Origin: Candidatus Latescibacterota bacterium
GTDB taxonomy: Bacteria; Latescibacterota; UBA2968; UBA8231
Length of the DNA: 64,000 nucleotides
Direction of reading: 5' to 3'
Assembly: GCA_965203175.1 (NCBI GenBank)
Contig: OZ241867.1
Coordinates: forward strand, 5,760,001-5,824,000
How positions within the stretch are numbered: the stretch's first letter is position 1; the number at the start of each line of letters is the position of its first letter. Made by a program: the position numbers and the translations under genes. The notes under the pieces were generated by a model. That model ran no database searches. It worked only from the letters and a program-made list of their open reading frames with translations, and was not told where the DNA came from. Of the stretch, positions 2,793 to 47,746 are shown one piece after another.

Positions 2793-5141
2793 ATGAATTT
2801 TCGCATGGCCCTCGTCGCCGTCTTGGTCTTGGGCAGTAGCTATCCGCTAGCAGCCGATCAGATACGCTATGACTCGGCGCGCGACTGGCGGCAATGGGAG
2901 GATCTGCCTTTGGGCGCGGTGGAATTGACGCCGTCGGGCTCGATCCAGCCAACCCGGATTGAAAAGGCGACCGACGCCGTGCGCGATTTGGACAAATTCG
3001 GCGGCGGCATCCGCAACGCGGGATCCAATCTCAACACCACTCGTTTGGCCATTGACGGCAATCCAGCGACCGGCTGGGCACCCGATCCAGAAGCCGGTCC
3101 GGACGAGTGGTTTATCGAGATTGACTTGGGCCGCGCAGTCTCGGCCAAAAGCGTCACTTTGGTATTCGACGCGGAGGCTCCGCCCTTTGAACTTTTCGAC
3201 CTCCTGCTCTCGACCGGCGAGCCGGAAACCGACTTTATCGCCGCACCTATTGAAGGTTCCTTGGTCTATCGCGTCAAAGGGCGTATCAAGGAAAACACCC
3301 ACCATCGGGTGACGTACCAAATAGAACAAATCGACGAAGAGCCAATCCAATTCATCCGCTTTGAGCCACTGCTCCTAGTGCCCGATGCCCGTCTCACCGA
3401 GATCGAAGTCGAGACCATCGGCGACAACATCGCCCTCGGGCTATTGGAACGCGGCGGGTCGGTCGATATCAACATTAATCTCGCTAGCAACGAATCGCAG
3501 CCTCTCGGCAAAGCGAGAGCGCTCTTTGACGGCGACTTGTACGAGCGCTGGCGTGCTGGCACGGCCTCTAGGGGCCTCACCGATATCCTCGCCCACATGG
3601 TTCTCGACTTAGGCGCAGTCTATTGGGTCGATCAAACGCGGATCATCGGCGGCGTGGTCGTGCGCTCCGGCTTTGGTGGTGGCATTACCACTCGCCACTA
3701 CGTTCACCGCCGGCGCTGGGACTTCCGCTTCTACGAGTTTATGACCTCGGACGGCTCGCTTTCGCCCGACGGCACCCGCCTATGGACCAAGCACTTTTCC
3801 GGTGCCTCGCCTGGCAGTCAGACCTCCAAGGGCCTAGTCGATCACAACTTCGACCTGCTGCCGACGCGATTTGTCCGCATCTTCTGGAAGTACTGGGACA
3901 CCAGTTGCTATTCCTTGCAGCGGCTCGGCGAGGTGGGCGGTGCCAGCACGATCCCAGGCTGCGGAGCTGGTGGGACCACCGACGAGATTCAGATTTTCGG
4001 CGAGGGGTTCCCGTCGGAGGTCGATTTCCGCTCCCCTCTGATCGACTTAGGTGCCGGCAAGAACCTCAACTCCGTGGAGTGGAGCGGAGACGAGCCGCCC
4101 GGTACGCGCATTGAGATTCGCACCCGTACCGGCAACGAAATTTTGGAAACCTATAGCTTCTATGACAAAAACGGCAAGGAAGTCTCCGAGAGGAGATACA
4201 ACAAGCTCATTCCCAGCTTCAAAGGCCCGATCGATACCACTCTCGCCGCGGGCGGCGATTGGAGTGCGTGGAGTCGCATTTACAGCTTCTCAGGCGAGGC
4301 TTTTCTCTCGCCCTCGCCGCGCCGCTACCTCGAAATCGACGTGCGCATGACCTCGGATTCTCCGACTGTGGGGGCTTCTCTCGACCACTTGGCCGTCAAT
4401 TTCACCCAACCGCTCGCCGGCCGCGTACTCGGCGAAATTTCTCCTCAGCAGGCCCTACCGGGAGTACTGACGGAGTTTACCTACTACTTGCGGCCCGAAA
4501 ACGCCAGCGGATTCGACCGCCTCGCCGTCGAGTCGGACACACCGGTGCAATTTACGAGCGTCGCGCACAATGGCACCGCGCTCGACGACGCGCAGGTGGA
4601 CACCACCGCGAGCGGCTTCTTAGTCCATCTGCCCAACCACATCCGCACCGACCAACTCATCGAGCTAAAATTTGAATCCTCCGTATTTAGACAATCTACG
4701 CGCTTCGACGTCTTTTTGCAGGACAGCCGCCAAGACGAGAGCGTGCGGCAGCGCGTGGACCCGGGCGACGCCACCGACCAGATTGAAAGTAACACCAACA
4801 TCGTCAGCTTGCCGGTCTCCCAGGAGTTACTCGCCAATATGTCCCTTTTGTCCAAGGCAATTACCCCCAACGGCGATGGGATCAACGACGAACTGACGCT
4901 GGAGATCGCACTGGTCAATGTGCTGACACCGCGCCCTCTGCGATTGCGCCTGTACGACCTCGCCGGCCGGCCGGTGTACGACCGCAGCGAAGACAGCCGC
5001 GCTGGCCAGCGCGAACTCGTCTGGAATGGCCGCGACAGCCGTGGAGATCGCGTGGCCCCAGGCCTGTACGTGCTCGAAGTCCTCGTCGAGGGCGATGCTG
5101 GCGACGAGAAAGCGCAAGCGCTCATTTCCGTAGCCTACTAG
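2793..5141 (+). CDS. Secreted discoidin-like/WSxWS protein with PNGDG-type FlgD-Ig C-terminal domain (long subtype I)
   Basis: Start moved to ATG 2793 (AGGAAGG upstream, signal peptide MNFRMALVAVLVLG). IDGNPATGW, IDLG, DWSAWS..SPSPRRY, TPNGDGIND, YDLAGR, WNGRD, ends ISVAY. Confidence 0.8.
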   Translation: MNFRMALVAVLVLGSSYPLAADQIRYDSARDWRQWEDLPLGAVELTPSGSIQPTRIEKATDAVRDLDKFGGGIRNAGSNLNTTRLAIDGNPATGWAPDPEAGPDEWFIEIDLGRAVSAKSVTLVFDAEAPPFELFDLLLSTGEPETDFIAAPIEGSLVYRVKGRIKENTHHRVTYQIEQIDEEPIQFIRFEPLLLVPDARLTEIEVETIGDNIALGLLERGGSVDININLASNESQPLGKARALFDGDLYERWRAGTASRGLTDILAHMVLDLGAVYWVDQTRIIGGVVVRSGFGGGITTRHYVHRRRWDFRFYEFMTSDGSLSPDGTRLWTKHFSGASPGSQTSKGLVDHNFDLLPTRFVRIFWKYWDTSCYSLQRLGEVGGASTIPGCGAGGTTDEIQIFGEGFPSEVDFRSPLIDLGAGKNLNSVEWSGDEPPGTRIEIRTRTGNEILETYSFYDKNGKEVSERRYNKLIPSFKGPIDTTLAAGGDWSAWSRIYSFSGEAFLSPSPRRYLEIDVRMTSDSPTVGASLDHLAVNFTQPLAGRVLGEISPQQALPGVLTEFTYYLRPENASGFDRLAVESDTPVQFTSVAHNGTALDDAQVDTTASGFLVHLPNHIRTDQLIELKFESSVFRQSTRFDVFLQDSRQDESVRQRVDPGDATDQIESNTNIVSLPVSQELLANMSLLSKAITPNGDGINDELTLEIALVNVLTPRPLRLRLYDLAGRPVYDRSEDSRAGQRELVWNGRDSRGDRVAPGLYVLEVLVEGDAGDEKAQALISVAY

Positions 5142-5288
5142 GAGGATCTGTGGGCAAAAAAATCTTGACAGCCAAGTACATATTTATTTGTTTACCCAAC
5201 TATATATTATAAAATGCCCCGAAAAATCGCCGATGAAAGGAGGTTTGTAGTACCAACCACTGCACTTTTGAGCAACTCCGTAAATTCC

Positions 5289-5322
5289 GCCCGTTGAAGC
5301 TCTATGGCGGGCCTTTTCTTTT
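5289..5322 (+). terminator. Terminator-like hairpin in leader upstream of CBM9-like gene
   Basis: GCCCGTTG/TGGCGGGC stem (5 GC + 3 GU pairs) followed by CTTTTCTTTT. Confidence 0.4.
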
Positions 5323-5362
5323 CACTTTTTATGTCCAGCAACTATATGAGGAGGATTTAACA

Positions 5363-6274
5363 ATGCGCAAAGTCCTAGCTTTGACTCTAGGCGCGTTGCT
5401 CGTCGCTGGCACTGCCTTCGCGCAGGAGCCGGCTGAAGTACCGCTCTTTTTCGCCGTGGGTATCCCTAGCAACGCCTTGCCCACCATCGATGGCGACAAT
5501 TCCGACTGGGCTTGGGTTGATCGCAGCTTTGAGGTCACCATTGAAGACATGAATCCGCTGACCGGCGGTGCCGACGACGCCGATGACCTGTTCATCGACC
5601 TGATCATTGGCTGGAGCGATGCCAACAACCGCATTCACGCCATGGTTCACGTCCACGACGACTTCCTGATCGTCGATAAGAACCCCACCTGCACCTTCCG
5701 CGATGACAACTGCGAAGTGCATTTCGACCCCGACAACCAAGGCGGCGGTCCGTACTCGGCGCCCAACGACCAAGACTTGCAGCCGGCCTACCAGATGTGC
5801 CTGAGCTTCTCCGAGCAGTTCTCGCGCGTCCAGATGTACAACGGCGCGCTGGGTAACTTCGAGCAGGACGCCCTGAACTTCTGGTGGACCCATACCGACT
5901 TTGTCGATGCCGGTCACGTCAACGAAGGCCAAGAGTACTACTACGAGTTCAGCGCCGAGTTGATGGACCCGCTCTCGATCAGTGGTGGCCCGGACGCCAG
6001 CACGGTGTGGACGCTTGCGGCCGAGCAGACCATCGGCATGTCGATCTCGATTGACGACGCCGACGAAGGTCTCAACGCCAACGGCAACGATCCAATGTCT
6101 GAGAACTGCTGTGAGAACGGTTTCTGGTGGCAGGCCCAGTACAGCATGGCCGAGCAGTTTATGAACAGCGGCGGCATGCCCGACATCTTCCTGACGCCAA
6201 TTGAAGCTGTAGACACGGCAGTCGAGGAAACCTCTTGGGGCCAAGTCAAGTCGCTGGTAGGCGAAGAGCTCTAA
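5363..6274 (+). CDS. Secreted CBM9/DOMON-like sugar-binding protein with C-terminal TAVEETSWGQVK motif
   Basis: GAGGAGG then ATG 5363; signal MRKVLALTLGALLVAGTAFA; PTIDGDNSDW, HVHDD, DDNCEVHFDPD, IGMSISIDDAD are typical of the CBM9-like fold. Confidence 0.72.
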   Translation: MRKVLALTLGALLVAGTAFAQEPAEVPLFFAVGIPSNALPTIDGDNSDWAWVDRSFEVTIEDMNPLTGGADDADDLFIDLIIGWSDANNRIHAMVHVHDDFLIVDKNPTCTFRDDNCEVHFDPDNQGGGPYSAPNDQDLQPAYQMCLSFSEQFSRVQMYNGALGNFEQDALNFWWTHTDFVDAGHVNEGQEYYYEFSAELMDPLSISGGPDASTVWTLAAEQTIGMSISIDDADEGLNANGNDPMSENCCENGFWWQAQYSMAEQFMNSGGMPDIFLTPIEAVDTAVEETSWGQVKSLVGEEL

Positions 6275-6311: not shown

Positions 6312-6352
6312 ACAAGGGGAGGGGAATCGGTTCCCCTCCCCTTGTTTTGTTT
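6312..6352 (+). terminator. Rho-independent terminator / stabilising hairpin
   Basis: Perfect 15-bp stem ACAAGGGGAGGGGAA-TCGG-TTCCCCTCCCCTTGT followed by TTTGTTT. Confidence 0.85.
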
Positions 6353-6377
6353 ATGGGGACGAGAGGCAACACGCGCT

Positions 6378-8177
6378 ATGTTCAAATGGCGATTTAGGCT
6401 GTTGATCTGCATTCTGTTGGGCGCTAGGGCGGCCAGCGCCGTGGACGTGTGGACCGCGGGAGGCTCTGGCTTTGCATGGGACGATGTCGGCGAACTGACC
6501 GGACTCACCACCGATGCATCTGTCCTGCTCCCTGCCGTGGTGGACTCGACCACCAATGCCGTCGCAAACCTCACCCTGACGCGGCGGGGTGGCAACATCT
6601 CCTCACCGCAGTCGCGCGAGAACCTGACCGGCCTGCTCACTGACGGCAATGCCGAGACCTTCTGGCGCGTCACGCGCGAGCGACGCCCCGATGGCACCTC
6701 CATGGTCATCGACTTAGGCGCGATCCTGCCGATCAACCGCATTCGCTTTCAGGGCAACCCCGACATCTTCCTCCGCGCCTATGAGCTTTTTGTTCACGAC
6801 GGCAACCCCGCGCAACTGCGCGAGGATCGTCCGATCGCCTTCATCAACCAAGTCAGCGCCAATCTCGAACAGAGCGAATCGGATATTGACGCTCATATCC
6901 CCCTCCAGTTTGTGCGCTTCATCCGCCTGATTAGCCGCTCGGGCCAAGAGTTCATCATCGAGGAAGTCGAGGTCTTTGGCGATGGCTTCGCGCCCACTGG
7001 CAGCTATCTCTCCGAAGTCATCGACCTCGGCGAGGCGGCCAACTTTGGCCAAATTCGCCTGCCGACCCGCTTTGACCCCTTAACTAACGTGGTATTGCAG
7101 ACGCGCACAGGCTCGGTGCCCGACCCCAAAATTTTCTATCGCAAAACCGATATCTTTGAGGGCGAAGATCGGCAGGAAGAACCCATCTTGCCGATAGGCT
7201 CACCCGAGGCGGCCGACGAGTATGACGATCTGACCTCGTCCGACAAGGGCGCGATCATCGACAACATCGACGAGTGGAGCCCTTGGTCGGCACCATACGA
7301 GGACTTCTTTGGCGATCTACTCTCGCCGGGCAACCGCCGCTACGTCCAGTTCCGTCTGTTGTTTTCGTCCGAGGACGCGCGCCAGTCGGCCTTTGTCGAT
7401 TCGTTCTCCTTTGACTATTCGATTCCGACACTGGCTGAAGAACTGACAGCCGAAGTCACTCCGGCGACGGTCACCCTCGGCGAGAGCAACACCTTCGACT
7501 ACTACATTCGCTCGACTTTCGGTGATGCCAACGATGGGTTCGACCGCGTGGAAATCCGCACGCCTTTCAAGGCCACGGTCAATAGCGTCGAACTAGACGG
7601 GGGACCCGTCGCTTTTACAGAAGAGGACGCGCAGGACGAGAGCAGGCTAGCCATCCAACTGACCGACGACCGAGTGACTGAATCGGGCCAGCTTTTGCGC
7701 ATCCGCTTCGAGGCCATGGTAACGGTCTATGGCACCACTTTCTTTGCCAAGGTTTTCGACAGTCAGACCGGCGAACTCGGTCAAGACGTGGTGGCCGGAG
7801 ACGCTACCCCCGAAGCCCAAGCCGACCGCTTGTCCATCCAAGGTGCGTTGCGCCAAGAACTCGTCCTCGAATTGAAGGCCGATCCGCCGGTATTTAGTCC
7901 CAACGGCGATGGAGTCAACGACCAGCTCCAGGTGTCCTACATCTTGCTGCGCGCGCTCTCGCAGGTGCCCGCCGATCTAATCGTGTACGACCTCGCGGGC
8001 CGCCCAGTGCGGCATTTGCAAAAAAGCGGCGCGCTCAATGGCCCACAACAAGTGGCTTGGGATGGCTTGGACGAGAGCGGTACCACGGTACCGCCCGGAC
8101 TCTACCTCTTGCAGCTTTCCATTGATACAGATACCGGCTCTGAGGACCGGTCATTGTTAGTGGGACTAGCGTACTGA
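6378..8177 (+). CDS. Secreted discoidin-like/WSxWS protein with PNGDG-type C-terminal domain (short subtype II)
   Basis: Start at ATG 6378 (signal MFKWRFRLLICILLGARAASA). LTDGNAETFW, IDLG, EWSPWS..RRY, FSPNGDGVND, ends VGLAY. Confidence 0.8.
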   Translation: MFKWRFRLLICILLGARAASAVDVWTAGGSGFAWDDVGELTGLTTDASVLLPAVVDSTTNAVANLTLTRRGGNISSPQSRENLTGLLTDGNAETFWRVTRERRPDGTSMVIDLGAILPINRIRFQGNPDIFLRAYELFVHDGNPAQLREDRPIAFINQVSANLEQSESDIDAHIPLQFVRFIRLISRSGQEFIIEEVEVFGDGFAPTGSYLSEVIDLGEAANFGQIRLPTRFDPLTNVVLQTRTGSVPDPKIFYRKTDIFEGEDRQEEPILPIGSPEAADEYDDLTSSDKGAIIDNIDEWSPWSAPYEDFFGDLLSPGNRRYVQFRLLFSSEDARQSAFVDSFSFDYSIPTLAEELTAEVTPATVTLGESNTFDYYIRSTFGDANDGFDRVEIRTPFKATVNSVELDGGPVAFTEEDAQDESRLAIQLTDDRVTESGQLLRIRFEAMVTVYGTTFFAKVFDSQTGELGQDVVAGDATPEAQADRLSIQGALRQELVLELKADPPVFSPNGDGVNDQLQVSYILLRALSQVPADLIVYDLAGRPVRHLQKSGALNGPQQVAWDGLDESGTTVPPGLYLLQLSIDTDTGSEDRSLLVGLAY

Positions 8178-8241: not shown

Positions 8242-10611
8242 ATGACAATCACTCGCGCACTATGCCTCGTTATGGTGTTGGGCAATTTCGCTTTTGGCGA
8301 GCGCGTCTCGTTTAACTCTCGCTCTGCTTGGCAAGAGTGGACGCACCCGGTCGGGGCCGTGGAACTCCAAGCGACTGGTCGGATCCAGCCTGTATCCGTG
8401 CGTAAAAACATCGACGCCGTGCGCAATGCCGAGCACTTTGGCGGCGGCATCCGCAGCGTTGGCAGCAATGCCCGCGACGCGGACCACATCATGGATGGCG
8501 ACCCAGCGACTAGCTGGTCTCCCGATCCGGCCGACGGCATTGAAGACGCCTATATCGAACTCGACTTGGGCCGCTTGGTCACGGCCTCCGAAATCGTCAT
8601 TACTTTCGACAAATCCGCGCCGCCCTTTGAGTTTTTCACCATCCTGCTGTCGAGCGGCGAGAAGTTCTTTACCAACGCATTGGTGCCTGTAGAAGGCACC
8701 TTAGGCTACGGCCTCTCCAAGGGAGTTGGCTTCAATGAGAGCCACGAGCTCGTCCTCGATCCCCGCCAGCGCACCTTGGGCTTGAGCGCGTCTGGCTCGG
8801 ACGACATTGGCGGTAGCTTTGCCGATGGCAGCGGCAGCGAGTTCAAGAAATCTTCGGGCCTGATTCGCATCATTCGCATCGAACTAGCCAAGTTCGTCGA
8901 GGGTGCCGGCCTAGCCGAGATTTCGGTCTCTACTATCGGCGACAACATCTCCCTCGGGATTATTGAGCGCGGCGGCAACATCGAACTCATCACCGACTTG
9001 CAGGCCGTGCTCTCCGGCGGCGAGAACATGGTTGACGGCGATATTGTCACCAACTGGGGCATGCAGACCTACCACCAGACCCAGACCGGCTTCGATATCT
9101 TCAATCGCATCATCTTCGACCTAGGGGCCCATTACTGGATTGACCAGATTCGCATCATCGGCGAGCCAGCCGGTGCCCCGTCGCGGATTCGCAGCCGCTA
9201 CGCCAACTTTTTCTGGTACCAGCTCCTCGCTTCCGACGGCTCGATTGCTCCAGATGGTACCCTGAATTTCCACGAGATTGCCTTTGTTGACGACAGCCCG
9301 CTGAACGAGACGGATATCCGCAACTTCGACCATCAATTCGAGTTGCAGAAAATTCGCTACATCAAGCAGTATTTCCCTTCCTCCCGCCACGGCGGCCAGC
9401 GCACGGGCACCCATGGCTCCTACCGCCTCTTCGCCCTGATTAGCGAGTTCCAGATCTACGGCGAGGGCTTTCCAGCCGAGTTGCAGTTAACCTCGCCGAT
9501 CCTCGACTTAGGCGAAGCCAAGGCCCTGACTTCGGTCGAGTGGGACTCCGAGACCCCGCCCGGCACGCGCATTGAGCTGCGCAGCCGCACCGGCAATGAA
9601 GTCGTCGAGAACATTCACTACTTCGACAAGAAGGGCAAAGAGATTACCGAGCGGAAGTGGAACAAGACGCCCAAGAGCCTGCGCGGGCCGACGAAAATCA
9701 CGATTTCCGTCGGCTCGGACTGGAGCGTATGGAGCGATCCTTATGTAACTTCCGGCGCGCTCTTTAACTCGCCCTCGCCGCGCCGCTATGTCCAACTCGA
9801 CCTGCGCCTGATTTCGGACGATCCTAGCACAGCACCATCGATCAACTCCCTTCACTTGAACACGGAAAATCCCATTGCTCTCGAAACTCGCGCTGAGGTC
9901 TTCCCCAGCCAAGTCGAACCGGGTGTCAAAAAGGACTTTACGTACTTCGTCCTGCCGATCTTTGGCGGGCGCTCGCAGGGCTTTGACCGCTTGACCATGA
10001 TCGCGTCCGTGCCTATTGATTTCACCAGCCTGAAGTTGGGAGACGAGTCGGTGGAGGTCGAAATCACCCCGGTCGCCGAAGGATTTGTCGTCGATTTACC
10101 AGCCACGATCCGCCGCTCGGAGCTAATCGAGCTTTCGTTTAGCAGTATCATTTACCAAAACCAGACGCGTTTCGACCTTTTCCTCGGCAACAGTAACCTC
10201 GGCACCGACGTGCGCCAACTCGTTGACCAAGGCGATGCCAAAGCCGATGTGCCGAGTGAATCCGTCTCCGTGCAACTGCCAATCAACGACCTCCTACTGG
10301 CCAACGTCGCCCTTTCGACGCCTGTGCTGACGCCCAATGGAGATGGGATCGGCGACGAGCTAGCCATTGAATTCGACGCGCTCAAGCTGGTGACTCCGCG
10401 ACCAATTCGGGTCCATATATACGACTTGGCCGGCCGCAAAGTGCGCGCGCTCGACAGCGGCGATGGGCTCGCTCGGCGCTACCACTTTTCTTGGAATGGT
10501 CGCGACGATGTCGGTGCGCTCGTGAGGCCGGGGACTTATTTATTACAAATCGAGATCGCCGGCGATTCCGAAACCGAGACGGTGCAGCGGATCGTACCGG
10601 TGGCCTACTGA
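8242..10611 (+). CDS. Secreted discoidin-like/WSxWS protein with PNGDG-type C-terminal domain (subtype I)
   Basis: Clear paralog of 2793-5141 (W..P.GAVEL...G.IQP, FGGGIR, RTGNE, DWSVWS..SPSPRRY, LTPNGDGIGD); ends VPVAY. Confidence 0.8.
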   Translation: MTITRALCLVMVLGNFAFGERVSFNSRSAWQEWTHPVGAVELQATGRIQPVSVRKNIDAVRNAEHFGGGIRSVGSNARDADHIMDGDPATSWSPDPADGIEDAYIELDLGRLVTASEIVITFDKSAPPFEFFTILLSSGEKFFTNALVPVEGTLGYGLSKGVGFNESHELVLDPRQRTLGLSASGSDDIGGSFADGSGSEFKKSSGLIRIIRIELAKFVEGAGLAEISVSTIGDNISLGIIERGGNIELITDLQAVLSGGENMVDGDIVTNWGMQTYHQTQTGFDIFNRIIFDLGAHYWIDQIRIIGEPAGAPSRIRSRYANFFWYQLLASDGSIAPDGTLNFHEIAFVDDSPLNETDIRNFDHQFELQKIRYIKQYFPSSRHGGQRTGTHGSYRLFALISEFQIYGEGFPAELQLTSPILDLGEAKALTSVEWDSETPPGTRIELRSRTGNEVVENIHYFDKKGKEITERKWNKTPKSLRGPTKITISVGSDWSVWSDPYVTSGALFNSPSPRRYVQLDLRLISDDPSTAPSINSLHLNTENPIALETRAEVFPSQVEPGVKKDFTYFVLPIFGGRSQGFDRLTMIASVPIDFTSLKLGDESVEVEITPVAEGFVVDLPATIRRSELIELSFSSIIYQNQTRFDLFLGNSNLGTDVRQLVDQGDAKADVPSESVSVQLPINDLLLANVALSTPVLTPNGDGIGDELAIEFDALKLVTPRPIRVHIYDLAGRKVRALDSGDGLARRYHFSWNGRDDVGALVRPGTYLLQIEIAGDSETETVQRIVPVAY

Positions 10612-35862: not shown

Positions 35863-35863
35863 C

Positions 35864-40154: not shown

Positions 40155-40194
40155 TTAGCCCATTCGGCAAAGCCTCTTGAGGGAGGGGTATCTC

Positions 40195-42831
40195 ATGTAT
40201 TTGTTTCGCATCCGATCGGCATTGTGTGTAGTACTCTCGCTGCTAGCTCTAGACTGGTACAGCGCTTCGGCCCAGTTGACTACAGGCTATCGGCCCATAG
40301 CCGAGCCAGGGATCTACGGAGTGCGCATCCACCCCGGCGCCCTAGCGCCCAACCGCCGCAAGTTCTACCTGCCGCAAAATCTCTTCTACGAATACGGTTG
40401 GCGGGGCTGGGAGTACAGCAACTACGCCCGCGACGAATACGAGCGCTACGTCGATATACAGCTAGAGGGCAACCGCCACTACGATGCCTTTGGCAACTAC
40501 ATCGCCCGCGGCTGGACGATTTACGACTGGACCGAGAACAACCCCCTGCGCCAGGGCAGCGGCATCTTCAAAAGCCCGCGCTATAGCAGTTGGTTCGACC
40601 GCGTGGTGATCTCGTCTGCCCACAAGGGCCAATTTCACACCGCGCTGACAGTAGGCGACGCCATTCGCACCACCCTAACCCCCCTGACCTTCTCTAAACC
40701 AACCTTTAACGGCATCCAGTGGGACTTCCTCTCCGACAAGTACGCATTCACGTTCCTCGGCTCGCGCATCAGCTCACCGGCCAACCCGGCCGGGACCCAG
40801 TCTCAGGCCGCAGCCCTGGTGGAAAACTCCACCCGCCTGCTCGGTGGCCGGGGCGTGGCCCAAGTGGGAGACTTTGCCAAGGTGGGGGCGACGTGGGTCA
40901 GTGCCCACAACGCGCGGAGCACCCTCGACATGGGCGACAATTCGCTCAAGGGCGTGTTGACCACGCCGCAGAACACGGGCAGCGTCGAGACCGTGACGAT
41001 CCTCATCTCAGACGATTCTCCCGAGTCGAGCGAAGACGGCGCGCTGCTATTTTTCGACCGAGTGCTAATCGACGGCGAGATTCACCCGGAAATCACCCCA
41101 ATCGTCCGCGGCGGGATCCGCACCGGCGGCAGCTTGGAAGCCAAGGGTGTGGACAACATCGAACTGATCTACGACATCCGCAACAGCTTCCGGCCCACCG
41201 AAAAGGTGCCAACCTATCAGGAGGCGAGTAAAATCGAGTTCGAGTTGATTCTGGCCAACGACTACCGAGTAGCCGTCACGTCCAACGTGCAAACCGACCG
41301 CTTGGGCGATCCAGTCTTTTTGCCCGTGGCGCAAGCCGAAGGCGAAATATCCGACGGGTCGAACCAGCAATTTCTGCGCTTTGAGTACGGGCTGCCCACC
41401 GGCAGCGATGTAATAGGGGTAGATTTTGAGATTCTAAGCCTCGGCGGGTTAGACCTGCGCGCCGAGTTCGTGCGCAACCGGCGCTTCCGGCGCTTCCCCA
41501 ACCAAAACCTAGAGCAACACACCCTCGCCGAAGACAAGGGAGAGGCCGGTTATGTCACCGCGTCTTACGCTTCTTATCCGTGGTTTGCCTACGGCGAGAT
41601 GTTCACCATGGACCCCAATTACAGCACGACTGCGTTCATGGCCAACTCGCTGGGCGGCATCGATTACAGCAGTGAAATTTTCCACCTCTTCGAATTCGTC
41701 GATGACAACGACGACCAAGATCGCTTTGCCGACTGGCAGCGGGCCGGCCAATTCGGCACCGGGATAGGCGCTTCGGGCGGCTCGGTGGGTGCCGACTTAG
41801 CGGTGTTCCCCGGGCTAGACGAGAACAACGATTTCGTCTCCGACTTCAACCAAAACCGCAACTCGCGGCCCGACTACGACGAGCCTTTCCTGCGCTATGA
41901 GGTCGATCCGCCGGCTTTTCTCTTCGGCATGGACATGAACAACAACACCCTGATTGACCGCTTTGAAGACGACCGCCAGCCCGACTATCCCTACGACCGC
42001 GATCACCGTGGCTACAACGCCTACGGCGGCTTTATGCTCAGCGAGGACGCACAGCTAACCCTCGGCCGCTTGAGCGAACGCCAGCTAAGCTCGGCGCGCA
42101 AGAGCAAAGCCAACTACGGTTTGTTCACCGTGCGCTGGAACTTCCCGGGCTTGCGGGTCGCGCTCTTTGAACACGCGAAACTCGTGTCAGACAACATCCG
42201 AGAAGACCGCTTGCTGTGGGTTGACCCAACGGGACGGACGGACTTTACTGATCCGCTCGACAACCAAGACACTTTCGTTAACAGCATCTACTTGCAGGCG
42301 AACTACAATCGCATCCGCAACTTCAGGGCGACCGCCAAAGTCAAACACGAGCTTTTCAACCAGCGGGGTGAGCAGGCTGCCGACAAGCGCGACCGCTCGT
42401 TTTTCGGGCTGATCACCAAAGCCGACTACACCATTCCCATCGGCGCGGATCTGACCATCTGGCCCAAGTGGAAGAGTACCTTCAGGCGCGAAACCCCCAC
42501 CGATCTGTCGCAGGCCAATATCCGCGAGCTAGAGGAAACCCTGTTCTTGGTTTCGCGCTATGCGATCCTCGAACAGACTTGGATCGCGCTCGGCCTAGAG
42601 TTCAGTTGGTTTGAAAACTTGCGCGACCGGCCGGCCGAGCTACAAGTCGGTTATGCCGAGGACTTTACCAGCCGCGTCTATTCGATCCTGTTCTCCAATA
42701 CTTCGGCCTATTTGGGGTACCAGCTAACCTTGAATGCGGGCCTGCAGCTAGAGGAACAAAACTTTGAGGCCGAGAAGCGCAACACCTCGCTTGGGTTCAT
42801 TCGCATTTTCGCCAGCACCGGCCAAGAGTAA
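40195..42831 (+). CDS. Large putative outer-membrane protein with Asp-rich loops (paralog 2)
   Basis: GGAGG then ATG 40195; shares IRTTLTPLTFS, FNGIQWDF, DDNDDQD, VFPGLDENND, DRFE.D...DYPY with 12523-15138. Confidence 0.6.
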   Translation: MYLFRIRSALCVVLSLLALDWYSASAQLTTGYRPIAEPGIYGVRIHPGALAPNRRKFYLPQNLFYEYGWRGWEYSNYARDEYERYVDIQLEGNRHYDAFGNYIARGWTIYDWTENNPLRQGSGIFKSPRYSSWFDRVVISSAHKGQFHTALTVGDAIRTTLTPLTFSKPTFNGIQWDFLSDKYAFTFLGSRISSPANPAGTQSQAAALVENSTRLLGGRGVAQVGDFAKVGATWVSAHNARSTLDMGDNSLKGVLTTPQNTGSVETVTILISDDSPESSEDGALLFFDRVLIDGEIHPEITPIVRGGIRTGGSLEAKGVDNIELIYDIRNSFRPTEKVPTYQEASKIEFELILANDYRVAVTSNVQTDRLGDPVFLPVAQAEGEISDGSNQQFLRFEYGLPTGSDVIGVDFEILSLGGLDLRAEFVRNRRFRRFPNQNLEQHTLAEDKGEAGYVTASYASYPWFAYGEMFTMDPNYSTTAFMANSLGGIDYSSEIFHLFEFVDDNDDQDRFADWQRAGQFGTGIGASGGSVGADLAVFPGLDENNDFVSDFNQNRNSRPDYDEPFLRYEVDPPAFLFGMDMNNNTLIDRFEDDRQPDYPYDRDHRGYNAYGGFMLSEDAQLTLGRLSERQLSSARKSKANYGLFTVRWNFPGLRVALFEHAKLVSDNIREDRLLWVDPTGRTDFTDPLDNQDTFVNSIYLQANYNRIRNFRATAKVKHELFNQRGEQAADKRDRSFFGLITKADYTIPIGADLTIWPKWKSTFRRETPTDLSQANIRELEETLFLVSRYAILEQTWIALGLEFSWFENLRDRPAELQVGYAEDFTSRVYSILFSNTSAYLGYQLTLNAGLQLEEQNFEAEKRNTSLGFIRIFASTGQE

Positions 42832-42853
42832 GAAGAACCGGCGAACATTGAAC

Positions 42854-42882
42854 TTGCTAAGCCCCCTTAAAAAACGTAATAT
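42854..42882 (+). promoter_or_regulatory. Candidate internal promoter for the second CBM9-like gene
   Basis: TTGCTA-17 nt-TAATAT in a 109-nt spacer. Confidence 0.45.
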
Positions 42883-42940
42883 AGTGCGTCTTAGAAGATG
42901 AATCGTCGATAGCTACACCACTATCCCACGGAGGGAACGT

Positions 42941-43870
42941 ATGAAAAAAATCCTTTTTCTTTCTGTCGTTTGCGCTGCAGCGTTCGCCTTAGTCAGTCCG
43001 GCTAACGCGCACGTCGGCGCTGAGTATTTCATCCCAGGAGTGCCCAACCCCAGCGCCATGACCATCGATGGCCTCGAAGACGATTGGGGCTGGTTGGACG
43101 AGGAATTTATCCTCACGACCGAGGGCATGTTTACCGCCGGGGGTGAGACCATTGAGAAGGAAGACTACGACGTCAGCATTCTGATGGCGTGGAGCACGCC
43201 ACCGGATAATCGCTTCTACTTCTTCATTCGCGTTCAAGACGACACCCTGCGTCTAATCGAAGAAGACCAGAAACGCTGGTGGAACGACGACTGCATTCAG
43301 ATCACCTTCGATCCGGATCACTCGGGCGGCGACTTCTTGGGCGAAAACGTCGATCAGGTTCTCAACGCGCAGCGCTATCACCTGCGCATCAAGCCGCTGC
43401 CGGGCCAGCCCGTGGCGTACAACAGCTTGCTCGAATACATCGACTTGCCGCCGATCGGCTGGAGTTCGGATATGTTTGAGGGCGAACCTACGGGCGACAT
43501 CTTCGAGATCGCCTGGACCGTCAATCCACCGGATGCCGAGCATTTCTCGACCAATGTCTCTTACACCTTCGAGTTCCGCAACGCTTTTTGGGACATCCAC
43601 GGTGTGACCCAAGACGAGGCGATTCGGCACATATTCGAAAATGATCAAGTGACCCATATCGGCGTGCGTCCGCTCGATGGCGACGGCGGCGAGACCGGTG
43701 CCAAGCATCAGCTTTATCCGCTGGGTGGCTCCACAGGTCAAGACCAGAAGGGCGACCAGATGCTCGACTATATCCTGCTGGAGGCCGACGAAGTCGAAAT
43801 CGAGGACACGGCGGTCGAAGCCACAAGTTGGGGTCGAGTCAAGAGTCATTTGAACAGCCAGCTCGACTAA
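42941..43870 (+). CDS. Secreted CBM9/DOMON-like protein with C-terminal TAVEATSWGRVK motif (paralog 2)
   Basis: GGAGG RBS; signal peptide; TIDGLEDDW, RVQDD, DDCIQITFDPD; paralog of 5363-6274. Confidence 0.72.
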   Translation: MKKILFLSVVCAAAFALVSPANAHVGAEYFIPGVPNPSAMTIDGLEDDWGWLDEEFILTTEGMFTAGGETIEKEDYDVSILMAWSTPPDNRFYFFIRVQDDTLRLIEEDQKRWWNDDCIQITFDPDHSGGDFLGENVDQVLNAQRYHLRIKPLPGQPVAYNSLLEYIDLPPIGWSSDMFEGEPTGDIFEIAWTVNPPDAEHFSTNVSYTFEFRNAFWDIHGVTQDEAIRHIFENDQVTHIGVRPLDGDGGETGAKHQLYPLGGSTGQDQKGDQMLDYILLEADEVEIEDTAVEATSWGRVKSHLNSQLD

Positions 43871-43905
43871 GCAAAGGCTGTATTGCATCAGCCGTCTAGC
43901 AAAGA

Positions 43906-43935
43906 GAGGAGGGGCAACTGCCCCTCCTCATCTTG
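43906..43935 (+). terminator. Hairpin downstream of CBM9-like gene
   Basis: GAGGAGGGGC-AACT-GCCCCTCCTC 10-bp stem with a weak T tail. Confidence 0.6.
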
Positions 43936-43973
43936 TATTAATAGCTTTGGCCAACAAAGAAGCGAGGATAGCC

Positions 43974-44729
43974 ATGAAGCCATTGGGTAGCTTGCTCCTA
44001 TTGCTAATCGCGCTCGCCGGATGCGGCTTAAAGTTCGGGTATCGGCACTTTACCGGTCCGGTGGTGCCCGCGGAAATCGCGGACGACAACTACTTGGTCG
44101 GCGACGACCACAGCATCACTTTCGTCAAAGATCGTCTAGAGGTAGCGATGTTGCCCATGTCGTCCGAGGCCCTGAATCGGCAATTCGCCGGCGTCTCAGC
44201 GGCTCCTGAGGGCTTTACCCTGCCCAATCCCTACGCCGTGGCTACCAATCCCTATACCTATGGCGATTGGACGCCGCCCGGCGAAGAGGAGGCTCCGACG
44301 CGATTTACCGTATTTTTGGTCAAAGTCAAAAACTACGCCTATCCCAAAGTTCGCCTAAATCCAGCCAACATCGAATTGATCGCCCCCAACGGGCGTCGCT
44401 ACGAGGCGCTCAGTCTCCTCTCCCTGACCGAGTACTATTGGCCCTACGCCCAAGCCTACGGCGGCAATGCGCGCAAGGGGTTCAAGGAGCGGCGCGATCT
44501 CTTGAATCGCACCCTGTTTGCCGACGACATGATCTTCAGCGGCCAAGAGCAAGAGGGATATTTGGTCTTTCCCCCTCTCGACCGCGACGTCGAGGAATTC
44601 ACGCTGTGGGTCCGCGATATGGTGCTGAGATTCGACTTCCGCGACGCACCTGTGGAGACTGTGGATATACCCTATGACTTCCAGCGCGAAGTGTACTACG
44701 CCCGGACTCGGCGTGCAGATAAGAGTTGA
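43974..44729 (+). CDS. Conserved cluster lipoprotein (paralog 2)
   Basis: GAGG then ATG 43974; lipobox LAGC; NPYTYGDW, KNYAYPKV, NGRRY, FSGQEQEGY. Confidence 0.75.
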   Translation: MKPLGSLLLLLIALAGCGLKFGYRHFTGPVVPAEIADDNYLVGDDHSITFVKDRLEVAMLPMSSEALNRQFAGVSAAPEGFTLPNPYAVATNPYTYGDWTPPGEEEAPTRFTVFLVKVKNYAYPKVRLNPANIELIAPNGRRYEALSLLSLTEYYWPYAQAYGGNARKGFKERRDLLNRTLFADDMIFSGQEQEGYLVFPPLDRDVEEFTLWVRDMVLRFDFRDAPVETVDIPYDFQREVYYARTRRADKS

Positions 44730-44730
44730 A

Positions 44731-46401
44731 ATGGCGGCGCGTGCGATCGGTTGTTTGTCTCTGGTCATTATCGCCGCCTGTAGTTCCCCCCAAGACGATA
44801 CAAGCATCGTAGCCCGCGTGGGCGAAGTCGCTATTACTTTCGAAGATTTACAGCGCTTCAAAAGCGACATGCCTCCCCTCCTACTCTCTGAGCGTGAAGG
44901 CGTCGCTGCATTCGACGAATACCTCCAAGCAATGATCGACATGGAGCTCCTGTTGCTAGAGGCGCGAAGGAGACAGATTGACAGCGACCCAGATTTTATA
45001 GAGCAATGGGAACAGGAGCGGGGAAAAAAGCTCTTCCAGGAATTCGTCAAGCTGGAAATCCAAGACAAAATCGACCTGCCGCAAGAGGAAATACAACGGC
45101 AGTGGGGCGAGAGCAAGTGGAACCGGCTACTAAAACTTGCCCGTATCCGCTCAGGTACCGCCGACGAGGCCGCCCAGGCCCTGCGTGTCCTAGAGAATGG
45201 GACCCCGTTTGAGGAACTGTCCGGCCAACCCCTGACCCACCTTCAGCAAGGGAGTCACCAGGGGGAGTTGAACTCCTACGTTGGACGGGACAATATCGAA
45301 GAGTTCGGGGTTTCGCTCGATGTGGCGGAGGTGCTCTTTGATCTCGCTAAAGGCGAGACTAGCGCGCCGCTGAAGGTCGAAGCCGGCTACGACATATATA
45401 AGGTGTTGGACGAACGTCCCGCGCCGGCCAGCTATTACTTAGTCTTTTCCCAAGGGGTGCTAATGGCCACCTTCGGCGAACGTCGGCGAGCGCTCATTAC
45501 CGAGTTGATGGGGGAATACAATGTCGAACTGGATCCCCATAGTATCGCCGAGTTAGCCACCAGCGTCGCCCAAGACAATGTGGAGGCTATCGACGCAGAG
45601 GGCATTCTGGGCCGATACGACGGTGGCCAGATCACACTAGCTGATTTCCTAGCGCTCTACCCGAAGGTGCGTCGGGTCGCCTCAGTGGGCACCGACAGTA
45701 GCGGTATTGATGAGTTCGTCCGGCTCTATCTGGTGCCCGAGGTACTCTTCCCCGTGGCAATCGAACGCCGCGGCTTGGCGCAGGAGTCGGCGATATCCGA
45801 CTGGCTGCGGATGAAAAAACGCGCGATGCTCATCGAAGAGCTGCGCCGCCGCGACGTGGAAGAGCACGTCGATCTGAGCGAAGATGTGCTTCGACGCTAC
45901 TACGAGGCCAATCAGCATCGTTTCATGGAAGATCGAGAAGTGACCGTGCAGGAGATCCTAGTTGCCACCCAAGAAGAGGCGGAGGCGCTAGCGGCACGCA
46001 TTCGAGCGGGTGCAGATATGGCGGCCTTGGCTGCAAGTCGCAGCATCCGCCAAGGCCGCGACGAGGGGCACTTCCACATCCACTCCTTTGAGCGGGTGGT
46101 TTTCGGTGAGCTGTTGACAGAGGCCCTAGCCGCGGAGGTTGGCGTGCTCACTGGTCCGGTGGCCATCACTGAGACTCCACACCGCCAAGGTGGTTTCTCG
46201 CTGTTTAAAGTCCTAGAAAAGACCCCTGAAAAGCCCAAGCCATACGACGAGGTAGTCAAACAAGTTCGCTACTGGTGGACCAAGGGGGAGGAAAATCGCC
46301 TCTATAAAGAACTGACTGACCGCCTGCGGGAAAAGTATGCCGCACAAATCTCCATCTACGAGGATCACTTGGCGACCATGTATGACGCGGCTCAGCTATA
46401 G
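44731..46401 (+). CDS. Parvulin-type peptidyl-prolyl isomerase / SurA-like lipoprotein
   Basis: ATG 1 nt after upstream stop; lipobox IAAC; two rotamase-like regions (GTPFEELS; QEILV..EEAEAL..RIRAGADMAALA). Confidence 0.78.
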   Translation: MAARAIGCLSLVIIAACSSPQDDTSIVARVGEVAITFEDLQRFKSDMPPLLLSEREGVAAFDEYLQAMIDMELLLLEARRRQIDSDPDFIEQWEQERGKKLFQEFVKLEIQDKIDLPQEEIQRQWGESKWNRLLKLARIRSGTADEAAQALRVLENGTPFEELSGQPLTHLQQGSHQGELNSYVGRDNIEEFGVSLDVAEVLFDLAKGETSAPLKVEAGYDIYKVLDERPAPASYYLVFSQGVLMATFGERRRALITELMGEYNVELDPHSIAELATSVAQDNVEAIDAEGILGRYDGGQITLADFLALYPKVRRVASVGTDSSGIDEFVRLYLVPEVLFPVAIERRGLAQESAISDWLRMKKRAMLIEELRRRDVEEHVDLSEDVLRRYYEANQHRFMEDREVTVQEILVATQEEAEALAARIRAGADMAALAASRSIRQGRDEGHFHIHSFERVVFGELLTEALAAEVGVLTGPVAITETPHRQGGFSLFKVLEKTPEKPKPYDEVVKQVRYWWTKGEENRLYKELTDRLREKYAAQISIYEDHLATMYDAAQL

Positions 46402-47746
46402 GGCACTAGGTTTTCTCGCCTGCGCATTGCTTTGCGCTTGCGACGGCGACGGCGACAGCGATCACTTAGCAGAAGCCAAGCGTCTAGCGACAGAGGGCAA
46501 ATACACCGATGCCGTCGCCGCGTGTACCCAGATCCTCGCAGCCAACCGCCAGCACCTTGAAGCTCTCTTGCTCTTGGCCCGCCTCAATCTGGTTCAAGGT
46601 CATCTAGCGCAGGCGGCGCAACTGGCCGAACAGGCCGTACAGCTAGCCCCTGATCACGCCGATACCTATCTCCTTTTGGGCGATATCTACGTCCGGCAGC
46701 GACGCAATGCCGATGCCGTGCTCATCTATCAAGAGGGTCTGCACGCCGCCCCCGAGCGGGGGGACTTCTACCGCAAACTCGCCAGAGCCTACGCCGACGA
46801 CGGACACTACAGCGAAGCCATAGAGGCCCTCCAGCAAGCCCTCAAACGCTCCGACGACGCGGCCATCCACTACAATTTGGGCGTGGTCTATGAGCGGCAG
46901 GCGCGCTACGAAGAGGCCAGCCGCGCATTTACCCGCACCACTGAGATAGACACAGCCTATGGCGACGCTTATTTCCGGTTGGGGCAAATCCGCGGCAATC
47001 AGGGCCTATTCGAAGAGGCTGCGGCTAACTTCGCGCGCATGATCAGCCTGGATCCAGACTACGCCCCGCCCTACACTGGGCTTGGCCAAGTCCGCATGCA
47101 GCAGGGCCGCTTAGACGAAGCCGAGCGCCTCTTTAAGCAAGCCATTGTCCTTGATCCTTTTGAGGCCGAAGCCTACCACCGACTCGGCACGCTCTTTTTG
47201 CGGCAGGGAGCCCAAGATCAAGGCGAGAAGCTCTTAGCCATGTTCAAACGCATCCAACCCGTCAGCGCCGACATCGAGCGTTTCCGCTATATCCTCAATA
47301 TCTACCCCGACGACGCCAACGCGCACTACAACCTAGGGGTGCTCTACGGAGGTCTTGGTCGCTACGCCGAGGCGGGCGTTGAGTACGCCTCGGCATTGCG
47401 CATCAACGACCAAGATCTCAGTGCCCGCAACAACTTGGCCAATGTTCTACTGCGGCAGGGACGCATTGACGAAGCGATCCACCACTACGAGATCGTGCTG
47501 GCGCTCAATCCGCGCTATGCCCAGGGCTTTAACAATCTGGGCTCGGCCTATATGATGAACGGCGATTTGCAGCAAGCCATCCAGGCTTTTGCCAAGGCGC
47601 TCAAGCTAGCGCCGGACAACGCCGATACTCACTTCAACCTTGCCCGTCTTTACAAAAGCCAGGGGCTGGATGCACGGGCCGATGCTGAGATGAAAATCTA
47701 CAATCAGCTTGTACAGGCGGCTAAAAAGAAAGAACACAGTGAGTGA
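46382..47746 (+). CDS. Tetratricopeptide-repeat lipoprotein
   Basis: Lipobox LCAC; about 10 TPR units (HYNLG, YTGLG, NNLG..., A..L.P). Confidence 0.9.
   Translation: MTRLSYRALGFLACALLCACDGDGDSDHLAEAKRLATEGKYTDAVAACTQILAANRQHLEALLLLARLNLVQGHLAQAAQLAEQAVQLAPDHADTYLLLGDIYVRQRRNADAVLIYQEGLHAAPERGDFYRKLARAYADDGHYSEAIEALQQALKRSDDAAIHYNLGVVYERQARYEEASRAFTRTTEIDTAYGDAYFRLGQIRGNQGLFEEAAANFARMISLDPDYAPPYTGLGQVRMQQGRLDEAERLFKQAIVLDPFEAEAYHRLGTLFLRQGAQDQGEKLLAMFKRIQPVSADIERFRYILNIYPDDANAHYNLGVLYGGLGRYAEAGVEYASALRINDQDLSARNNLANVLLRQGRIDEAIHHYEIVLALNPRYAQGFNNLGSAYMMNGDLQQAIQAFAKALKLAPDNADTHFNLARLYKSQGLDARADAEMKIYNQLVQAAKKKEHSE

Follow-up and report, generated by a model that had tools for sequence, protein, structure and literature searches.

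We analysed a 64,000-nucleotide stretch of a Candidatus Latescibacterota genome (contig OZ241867.1; "the window" below means this whole stretch) and found that it carries two diverged copies of a gene module predicted to encode an envelope system of secreted lectin-like proteins, a very large outer-membrane β-barrel, lipoproteins and polytopic inner-membrane proteins. The window has a G+C content of about 60%, and a near-continuous run of plus-strand genes extends from 2.7 to 47.7 kb. Open reading frames (ORFs) were called, 39 of them were scanned with Pfam, NCBIfam models were searched as well, and the products were compared by all-against-all blastp. Cluster 1 (2793–25820, or from 2748 if the whole first ORF is counted) encodes, in order, a type I lectin-like protein, a CBM9-like protein, a type II lectin-like protein, a further type I and a further type II protein, the 871-residue barrel, a SurA-like protein, a lipoprotein, an M28/FtsX protein, a DUF6785+DUF6784 protein and a 660-residue polytopic protein. 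Cluster 2 (31769–47746) encodes a DUF6785+DUF6784 protein, two type II proteins, a type I protein, the 884-residue barrel, a CBM9-like protein, a lipoprotein, a peptidyl-prolyl isomerase (PPIase) and a TPR protein. An earlier interpretation made from the letters alone (the sequence-only reading) had described the same two clusters, and our ORF, Pfam, NCBIfam and blastp results reproduced its gene order and content gene for gene.

Seven gene types are common to both clusters: types I and II, the CBM9-like protein, the barrel of about 870 residues, the SurA/PPIase-like lipoprotein, the small lipoprotein and the DUF6785+DUF6784 protein. Their paralogues are only 26–40% identical, and because of this divergence a recent duplication can be ruled out. 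Together with the recurrence of the same set in other genomes, this bears out the proposal of the sequence-only reading that the module is old and co-selected. The gene content assigned to cluster 2 also stood, but its start probably lies earlier, at an FG-GAP/ASPIC-UnbV gene (g16, 29265–30863, plus strand), which should be counted in the cluster because the most closely related modules hold the same ten genes. Promoter scans of the window yielded fewer sigma-70-like sites than shuffled sequence, and such scans are thus uninformative for Latescibacterota.

A large outer-membrane barrel of an unnamed family

The 871-residue protein of cluster 1 (g08, 12523–15138, plus strand) begins with a signal peptide and ends in an aromatic residue (...GWSF). 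It is 40.0% identical, over 888 alignment columns, to its 884-residue paralogue in cluster 2 (g22, 40177–42831, plus strand). The AlphaFold2 (AF2) model of the barrel protein, built from a 72-sequence alignment (pLDDT 84.9, pTM 0.85), shows a large outer-membrane β-barrel of roughly 22–28 strands with two insertions, a β-sandwich at about residues 240–370 and an acidic, loop-rich segment at about residues 460–575. Besides the signal peptide, the sole helix ahead of the modelled barrel is formed by residues 55–58. Invariant motifs in the acidic segment (DDNDD..D, PGLDE..D..D.N.N.N..PDY.EPF and D.NNN..ID..END) look like EF-hand or dockerin-type calcium loops.

The family to which these barrels belong is undescribed. 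Neither g08 nor g22 gave a Pfam hit at E ≤ 10 beyond one chance-level match, or any NCBIfam match, and profile searches of PDB sequences with two alignments returned one chance-level hit and no hit, SlpA not being found. Foldseek comparison of the model with PDB structures recovered generic large barrels only (SlpA, MtrB, LptD, ushers and TonB-dependent transporters) with TM scores of at most 0.28; the top match was SlpA of D. radiodurans (8ae1_A, E 1.3e-9, TM 0.27). PorP/SprF barrels have about 300 residues, and neither g08 nor g22, with 871 and 884, matches PorP_SprF in Pfam or belongs to that family. Plug and TonB_dep_Rec matches are likewise absent from both proteins, whose likeness to TonB-dependent transporters (Foldseek E about 1e-4, TM 0.19–0.23) does not make them SusC relatives. 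Fimbrial ushers combine a 24-strand barrel and plug with N- and C-terminal periplasmic domains; the window barrels have no Usher match in Pfam, resemble FimD and PapC at E 1e-4 and TM 0.17–0.22, and are not members of that family. Pfam also found no SLH domain in g08 or g22. Two further candidates were rejected: LptD, which matched as a generic large barrel (TM 0.17) and whose LptE-like partner match was absent, and a BAM/TAM part, for which there was no POTRA or Omp85 match.

Relatives of the barrel are numerous, with 680 clusters at 50% identity in a search of representatives at E ≤ 1e-3. A distant branch shares 25% identity with the window family, and hhalign aligns the two as homologues across 838 columns at a probability of 100. 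A scan for SlpA_C (PF21620) covering 53 of the 72 members of the barrel alignment gave hits in 11 of these 53 distant homologues, all below the cut-off of 35 bits (16–30 bits), falling only at about positions 226–330 of the 656-position profile and confined to the acidic region (about 70 profile positions). A precomputed PF21620.6 match is present in 41 of the 120 distant-branch members listed. No full-length match at the gathering score was found, and g08 and g22 gave no hit. Complex prediction of the barrel (residues 85–860) with the module lipoprotein (residues 62–283) scored 0.00 in both runs, with the controls unfolded, and is evidence neither way.

Lectin-like proteins end in a type-B-like domain

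Type I proteins are encoded by g03 (2793–5141), g06 (8242–10611) and g21 (37812–40154), and type II proteins by g05 (6342–8177), g07 (10652–12433), g19 (33802–35862) and g20 (35864–37825), all on the plus strand. The g03 ORF opens at a TTG codon at 2748, and the ATG at 2793 lies within it, ahead of the signal peptide. By blastp, type I proteins are 29–40% identical to each other (g03 versus g06, 39.5%) and type II proteins 29–38% (g05 versus g07, 38.5%), with 25–31% identity between the types over the C-terminal 400–600 residues. On these alignments the two types are one superfamily, type I having about 200 additional N-terminal residues. F5_F8_type_C domains matched in g03 (37.2 bits, Ig-like domains also being present), g21 (45.6 bits) and g05 (23.0 bits). 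The AF2 model of g06, from a 77-sequence alignment, is all-β (pLDDT 90.1), and in Foldseek it resembles tandem discoidin/CBM32 domains (neuropilin b1b2, TM on target 0.50) joined to Ig-like arrays. Further type I matches from Foldseek and the PDB profile search were the CBM32 of ZmpB, the N-domain of galactose oxidase and the FlgD Ig domain, the profile search returning F5/8-C and CBM32 domains together with the latter; neither search found an enzyme fold or catalytic domain. Types I and II are thus non-catalytic discoidin/CBM32 and Ig-like proteins, and each ends in a domain resembling that of type-B cargo secreted through the type IX system (T9SS).

This C-terminal domain (CTD), the last 90 or so residues, is matched about equally well by FlgD_ig and CHU_C. 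The FlgD_ig cut-off is reached by six of the seven proteins; scores were 28.9 bits for g05, 31.0 for g07, 37.7 for g19 and 37.6 for g20. CHU_C (PF13585; 27-bit cut-off) is reached by four, g03 (31.3 bits), g06 (29.8), g07 (27.8) and g20 (31.1), while g05 scored 26.8 and g21 23.4 bits, and g19 had no hit. Alignments of the domain contain a near-invariant TPNGDG..D, which we take to be the motif typical of type-B T9SS signals. PF13585 is precomputed in most of the 120 homologues of g21 listed, one of which carries the NCBI name "T9SS type B sorting domain-containing protein". The NCBIfam sorting-domain models for type B (TIGR04131) and type A scored 16–21 bits on the type I and II proteins, below their cut-offs of 35 and 23 bits. 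The sequence-only reading had reported no SusC/TonB, pilin, flagellar or core T9SS genes, and none was found among the 39 ORFs. Its "no T9SS" holds for the core genes only, because the lectin-like proteins end in this domain, and the view of the module as unrelated to T9SS needs revising. The introduction of PMC11285876 indicates that T9SSs may exist in other phyla of the Fibrobacterota–Chlorobiota–Bacteroidota group, and does not name Latescibacterota there.

The domain also occurs outside the module. A di-haem cytochrome c peroxidase of the CCP_MauG family (g01, 86–1696, minus strand) has an FlgD_ig/Por_Secre_tail-like C-terminal domain (FlgD_ig 48.5 bits) that is 34–47% identical to the tails of types I and II. 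Because this peroxidase carries a related tail, the tail is best seen as a general sorting signal in this organism, and g01 appears, on sequence similarity, to be a redox enzyme that this signal directs to the cell surface. Beside modules in other genomes we noted an 1884-residue protein with He_PIG Ig domains and an FlgD_ig/Por_Secre_tail-like tail (L031:14804-20458), and a 1038-residue, WD40-repeat-rich protein that matches the tail-bearing g01 and has no tail domain in the Pfam matches listed (L033:14298-17414).

A CBM9-like protein followed by a strong hairpin

Each cluster encodes one CBM9-like secreted protein of about 300 residues with a signal peptide that lacks a lipobox (g04, 5294–6274, and g23, 42941–43870, both plus strand; 25.9% identical). 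CBM9_1 (PF06452; cut-off 23.4 bits) scored 25.0 bits on g04 and a sub-threshold 16.8 bits on g23, and was matched at E ≤ 0.01 by 7 of 15 family members. A profile of the family matched the CBM9 of T. maritima xylanase (1i82) at E 1e-4 over about 50 residues. Carbohydrate binding by the CBM9-like protein is putative. Both proteins end in a tag (TAVE..SWGxVK in g04; 6230–6274 and 43826–43870) with the family consensus TAVE..[ST]WGxIKxxF. A tag of the form TAVE..[ST]WGx[IV]K, followed by 3–10 residues, was found on 49 CBM9-like ORFs in the loci described below; we know of no named family for it. The same tag ends unrelated secreted proteins, for example PD40 β-propeller proteins, and lies close to the C terminus of an FGE-type enzyme (g02, 1689–2600, minus strand); other tag-bearing ORFs are L021:388-1329, L021:1375-2346, L025:2539-3063, L058:710-1645 and L064:21340-22266. 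The tag resembles a signal for sorting or docking that is specific to the lineage.

A 15-pair stem-loop with a T-rich tail lies directly 3′ of g04 (6312–6345, plus strand), and a GC-rich palindromic stem-loop of 10 pairs lies downstream of g23 (43906–43929). We defined a strong hairpin as one of −20 kcal/mol or lower within 40 nt, located within 90 nt downstream of a gene. Such hairpins follow 88% of 60 CBM9-like genes, compared with 26% of 81 barrel genes, 13% of 55 lipoprotein genes, 6% of 49 PPIase-like genes, 2% of 194 type I/II genes and 0% of DUF6785, FG-GAP and TPR genes. This difference (88% versus 0–26%) suggests that genes of one operon are expressed unequally and that the CBM9-like protein is made in excess; the hairpin suggests an internal terminator or stabiliser that would make it the most abundant product of the module.

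Lipoprotein, chaperone-like, TPR and FG-GAP genes

The conserved lipoprotein is encoded by g10 (16369–17220; lipobox LLGC) and g24 (43947–44729; lipobox LAGC), both on the plus strand and 36.5% identical. The family alignment has a mean column identity of 46%, and the family is unnamed: no Pfam or NCBIfam match was found, the PDB profile search returned nothing below E 0.1, and the nearest ESM Atlas clusters share no common Pfam family. A stem-loop with a T tail lies 3′ of g10 (17246–17269, plus strand). The sequence-only reading had named a PPIase in each cluster, that of cluster 1 as a lipoprotein. This holds for g25 (44674–46401, plus strand), with Rotamase_2 at 71.2 bits, above its cut-off, and Rotamase at 36.3 bits, but not for g09 (15126–16433, plus strand), a SurA/PrsA-like lipoprotein with a lipobox-like LWAC that gave only sub-threshold SurA_N_3 (20.1 bits) and SurA_N_2 (18.9 bits) matches and no rotamase hit. 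The two are 25.8% identical over 411 columns. Cluster 2 ends with a TPR lipoprotein recognised by Pfam TPR families (g26, 46337–47746, plus strand). The FG-GAP/ASPIC-UnbV assignment of g16 comes from Pfam; a link of such proteins to SusCD pairs was unsupported in the literature searched. Elsewhere in the window, a 211-residue ASPIC/UnbV ORF (59475–60110) directly follows a 673-residue FG-GAP ORF (60114–62135), both on the minus strand. Read as one, the pair matches the layout of g16, which is a single gene, and may be a split or frameshifted gene, or reflect a sequencing error.

The module recurs and its components co-diverge

For relatives of the barrel we scanned one genome per species. At least 460 stretches encode one, and the best 80 were kept as loci, in which ORFs were called by a simple procedure and assigned to window proteins by phmmer. 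The nearest homologues of the 871-residue protein come from metagenome-assembled genomes (MAGs) whose titles read Candidatus Latescibacterota, older records giving Gemmatimonadetes instead. The labels of the best 80 of the at least 460 loci comprise 58 Latescibacter-, 19 Gemmatimonad- and 1 Planctomycetota label, and 2 of "uncultured bacterium". In one Gemmatimonadetes-labelled MAG, the barrel of a locus reaches 96% identity (best segment) with that of the window, as is the case in Latescibacterota-labelled records; because barrels this similar appear under both labels, the labels probably differ by submitter rather than by biology.

Co-occurrence was counted in the 47 of the 80 loci with full 10-kb flanks (at least 22 kb around the barrel relative). 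Type I/II genes were present in all 47, with a mean of 3.2 per locus, and the barrel in 46, the one miss being due to simple ORF calling. CBM9-like and lipoprotein genes were each found in 42, PPIase-like genes in 37, TPR genes in 26, DUF6785 genes in 22, FG-GAP/ASPIC genes in 21, M28/FtsX genes in 13 and OPT-like genes in 11. The components thus co-occur in other genomes, as the sequence-only reading had anticipated, and they do so in at least five kinds of gene order. The modules nearest to cluster 2 (L067, L071, L072 and L080; barrel 64% identical) hold its ten genes (FG-GAP, DUF6785, II, II, I, barrel, CBM9-like, lipoprotein, PPIase and TPR) arranged as two divergent operons, unlike cluster 2, which indicates that module content is kept and order is not. 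The FG-GAP gene is present in L067, L072 and L080, with a partial match at the locus edge in L071.

Several copies can reside on one chromosome: among the best 80 loci, OZ244790.1 and OZ244897.1 have four each, and OZ244561.1 and OZ247580.1 three each. In the distant barrel branch, 13 paralogues among the matches listed share one longest-contig figure, 5,870,491 (5.87 Mb), which suggests still larger expansions per genome. We compared pairwise distances by Mantel tests over 40 modules with exactly one full-length copy of each component. The distances of the barrel, lipoprotein, CBM9-like and PPIase-like proteins were closely correlated (r = 0.95–0.99, p = 0.001); the parts of a module have diverged in concert, without exchange from one module to another. 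This co-divergence shows that the module is a unit, not that its parts touch, because block duplication alone would give the same correlation. Overall, the gene set is conserved, co-diverging and repeated within genomes.

Two loci, L076 and L079, differ from this pattern. Each has two barrel genes within about 10 kb, both accompanied by type I/II genes, and no lipoprotein, CBM9-like or PPIase-like gene within ±10 kb; a leucine-rich-repeat protein is encoded between the barrels in L076. This arrangement may be a minimal form of the module.

Inner-membrane proteins and variable catabolic neighbours

Both clusters encode a polytopic inner-membrane protein that matches DUF6785 and DUF6784 (PF20581/PF20580) full-length and above cut-off: g12 (21924–23834; 373.2 and 87.0 bits) and g18 (31769–33733; 413.5 and 98.0 bits), both on the plus strand and 30.9% identical. 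DUF6785 clusters are placed near OPT clusters in the ESM Atlas. Cluster 1 also encodes, on the plus strand, a 1548-residue polytopic protein with hydrophobic segments and M28 peptidase and FtsX-like permease domains (g11, 17281–21927; FtsX 44.5 and Peptidase_M28 36.3 bits) and the 660-residue polytopic protein g13 (23838–25820). The label "OPT-like" in the sequence-only reading finds no Pfam backing for g13, which gave no hit at E ≤ 10, to OPT (PF03169) or otherwise, and is not a member of that family. Its OPT likeness comes from language-model features only, namely an ESM Atlas similarity of 0.98 to "peptide transporter" clusters of which 15–33% of members carry PF03169.

The genes around the module vary from copy to copy. 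From 20 diverse loci we collected 91 unassigned ORFs of at least 180 residues and scanned 72 of them, omitting 19 near-duplicates from closely related loci. They encode three sulfatases, three MFS transporters, PhyH dioxygenases, two ABC sugar-binding proteins with permeases and one SBP_bac_5 protein; three enolase-superfamily dehydratases, UxuA, a DHDPS-family protein and short-chain dehydrogenases; a PL4-like rhamnogalacturonan lyase, a GH130 enzyme, a sugar kinase and a rhamnosidase-like protein; and an M19 dipeptidase, an amidase, a creatininase and an asparaginase-like protein. In the window, Pfam identified an FGE-type sulfatase-maturing enzyme, an Ldh_2 protein, an SSF symporter and a PhyH-family dioxygenase (g17, 30897–31751, plus strand), a recurrent neighbour also found in L020, L025, L033, L037 and L054. 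The enzyme content beside different copies, which the sequence-only reading had singled out for comparison, is thus catabolic and transport-related and changes between them. A constant envelope core with changing catabolic and import genes resembles the logic of polysaccharide-utilisation loci (PULs).

A proposed role in surface capture and uptake

We propose, with a probability of roughly 45% and thus tentatively, that the clusters are diverged copies of a Latescibacterota-specific, multi-copy envelope module for surface capture and uptake. Types I and II would be exported, probably by a T9SS-like route, and held at the surface through their CTDs, with the cognate barrel as their outer-membrane partner, as PorP/SprF is for type-B cargo in Bacteroidota. 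According to PMC9143113 and PMC12618676, such cargo both binds its cognate PorP/SprF barrel and is dependent on it, and the genes of the two are often linked. Glycan or glycopeptide would be bound by the discoidin domains, the surface complex would be completed by the lipoprotein together with the abundant CBM9-like protein, and the SurA-like lipoprotein would chaperone module-specific clients in the periplasm; assembly of the lectins on the barrel with a chaperone of their own is inferred. Captured fragments would pass the outer membrane by way of the barrel; the OPT-superfamily-like DUF6785/6784 protein, or an MFS, ABC or SSF transporter in other copies, would then carry them across the inner membrane. 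The barrel may import substrate, anchor the lectins or export them, and its role as an alternative to SusC is suggested only by the variable catabolic and transporter neighbours.

Several points weigh against this proposal. Neither a plug nor a TonB box is present in the barrel, nor any detectable kinship with SusC/TonB-dependent transporters, and substrate conduction through it is hypothetical. According to PMC9388160, the pore of D. radiodurans SlpA is filled by metal-binding insertions and its authors doubt a pore role. The modules themselves contain few glycoside hydrolases, and coupling to one inner-membrane transporter is not fixed, because DUF6785 occurs in only 22 of the 47 loci. The NCBIfam type-A and type-B models score types I and II only below cut-off, and their export by a T9SS-like route is putative: secretion of type-B proteins depends on a T9SS core (GldK/L/M/N, SprA/Sov), of which the 39 window ORFs scanned contain no gene. 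Shared descent explains part of the co-occurrence, because the loci are the best 80 of at least 460 and almost all from one phylum. The components are known here from sequence and predicted structure.

The chief competing explanation is a dedicated export or anchoring device for adhesion to particles or host matrix, with no part in import. In one variant the barrel, SurA-like chaperone and lipoprotein translocate the CTD proteins in an usher-like or two-partner-like manner without a T9SS core; in another the barrel is only a PorP/SprF-like shuttle or anchor. Every module places two to five CTD-bearing proteins beside one barrel, and discoidin, FG-GAP and TPR proteins are typical adhesion parts. 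A SurA-like chaperone that is present in 37 of 47 loci and co-diverges with the barrel (r 0.97) fits a dedicated client pathway better than a porin, ushers of similar size are among the fold matches (FimD, E 1e-4), and Bacteroidota type-B cargo requires cognate barrels (PMC9143113, PMC12618676). However, the barrel matches neither PorP_SprF nor Usher in Pfam, and its TM score to ushers is only about 0.2. The g01 peroxidase carries a related CTD without an adjacent barrel, an indication that a general export route is encoded elsewhere, and adhesion alone would leave the changing catabolic and transporter neighbours, and the OPT-like and DUF6785 genes inside the module, unexplained. On balance we regard this explanation as doubtful. 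A scheme that joins export to uptake, in which an SlpA_C-like giant barrel, the SurA-like chaperone and the lipoprotein form a self-contained machine that translocates and holds the CTD lectins without a PorKLMN/SprA-type T9SS and then imports the catch, seems to us unlikely.

Still less probable is an envelope scaffold or surface-layer (S-layer)-like coat, with an SlpA-like barrel anchoring a small, abundant CBM9-like protein and Ig-array proteins, in antigenic or functional variants. SlpA is the top fold match, S-layer proteins are among the type I fold matches, the hairpin 3′ of the CBM9-like gene suggests a very abundant product, and SlpA_C matches recur among distant relatives (sub-threshold in 11 of 53 family members scanned, precomputed PF21620 in 41 of the 120 distant-branch members listed). 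Yet the fold match to SlpA reaches a TM score of just 0.27, Pfam aligns no more than about 70 profile positions, which fall in the acidic loop region, SLH domain and coiled coil are both lacking, and barrel-family profiles match no PDB sequence, SlpA included; nor would 3 to more than 12 diverged copies per genome beside different catabolic genes be expected of a structural coat. Export of an exopolysaccharide through the barrel and TPR lipoprotein, as by AlgE/AlgK, PgaA or BcsC, is highly improbable. It could draw on the TPR lipoprotein in 26 of 47 loci, on weak NCBIfam hits below cut-offs (g26 to PrsT and PgaA, g09 and g25 to EpsD) and on BcsC and a polysaccharide secretin as low-ranked fold matches, but the TPR hits reflect generic repeats, neighbouring genes are catabolic, and neither the window clusters nor the 72 flanking ORFs scanned contain a glycosyltransferase, polymerase, flippase or exosortase. 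An exosortase/PEP-CTERM system was also considered and rejected, the EpsD and PrsT hits being sub-threshold and an exosortase being absent.

Relation to known systems

Like T9SS type-B cargo and its PorP/SprF partners (SprB–SprF and PG1035–PorP; PMC9143113 and PMC12618676), the module pairs non-catalytic, adhesin-like proteins ending in a CHU_C/type-B-like domain with a cognate, co-diverging outer-membrane barrel encoded beside them. Unlike PorP/SprF, this barrel has about 870–1000 residues, belongs to an unnamed family without a PorP_SprF match and is accompanied by several cargo genes, and the module adds a CBM9-like protein, a lipoprotein, a SurA-like chaperone and inner-membrane transporters in a different phylum, Latescibacterota. 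With SusC/SusD PULs it shares many diverged copies per genome and a constant outer-membrane core and surface lectins beside variable enzymes and transporters. It differs from them in having no TonB-dependent transporter, plug or SusD-like protein (TM of the barrel to TonB-dependent transporters ≤ 0.23), no evident energy-coupling element, and surface proteins that bear a CTD instead of a lipid anchor.

Similarly, the barrel recalls the SlpA of Deinococcus-Thermus (28–30 strands) in being very large, single-chain and equipped with acidic, probably metal-binding insertions; in D. radiodurans SlpA is a 30-stranded barrel with metal-binding insertions in the pore and an SLH/coiled-coil tether (PMC9388160). 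By contrast, the module barrel has no SLH domain or coiled-coil stalk and no PDB sequence match, and its genes are multi-copy within catabolic loci, whereas SlpA is a single abundant tether. Chaperone-usher systems (FimD/PapC with FimC/PapD) offer a further parallel, in that genes for a barrel of about 800–880 residues, for a periplasmic chaperone and for several secreted subunits that are paralogues lie together. In chaperone-usher operons a hairpin follows the major pilin gene, and in the module one lies 3′ of the gene for one small, probably abundant subunit. Unlike these systems, the module has no Usher, PapD or pilin family match, its chaperone is SurA/parvulin-like rather than Ig-like, its subunits are multidomain proteins of 600–800 residues, and its likeness to the usher fold is generic. 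Consistent with the sequence-only reading, the Pfam, NCBIfam, PDB profile and Foldseek searches matched no component set to a characterised system over its full length. The module functionally resembles PULs and type-B-cargo/PorP pairs and is a member of neither, because its barrel belongs to none of the PorP/SprF, SusC, usher and SlpA_C families, barrel and lipoprotein alike are without a family, and the type-B CTD models match only in part.

The Latescibacterota, a widespread phylum without cultured members, degrade polymers of algae and animals. A 2015 genomic analysis of the phylum assumed that substrates cross the outer membrane by non-specific porins (PMC4454575). We found no published description of the module (supplements or subscription journals might hold more), and the literature searched contained no mention of DUF6785, or of Latescibacterota together with type IX secretion. 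If our proposal is right, the repeated module would be the dedicated capture apparatus of the phylum, present in several to many copies per genome, and the pairing of type-B CTD cargo with a cognate barrel would extend beyond Bacteroidota and PorP/SprF. A self-contained machine, if that is what it is, would mean that a lineage sister to Bacteroidota has an evolutionary alternative both to T9SS–PorP anchoring and to import by SusCD. The core of the module comprises three nameless families (barrel, lipoprotein and the CBM9-like protein that bears the C-terminal tag), its genes could serve as a marker set for metagenome annotation, as SusCD pairs do for PULs, and it would provide a first genomic context for DUF6785/DUF6784.

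Other features near the module

Two genes of the window (g27, 47709–49256, and 51936–54176) encode polytopic membrane proteins fused to a spermidine-synthase-like methyltransferase fold. The first, which matches the NCBIfam "fused MFS/spermidine synthase" model at 206 bits, comes immediately behind the TPR gene that closes cluster 2; a relative stands at the end of a module in another genome (L042, 11110–13503); these fusions may be a further recurrent neighbour. Two ureidoglycolate-lyase-like paralogues that are 53% identical (49273–49791 and 51064–51606) lie on either side of a GFO/IDH/MocA oxidoreductase.

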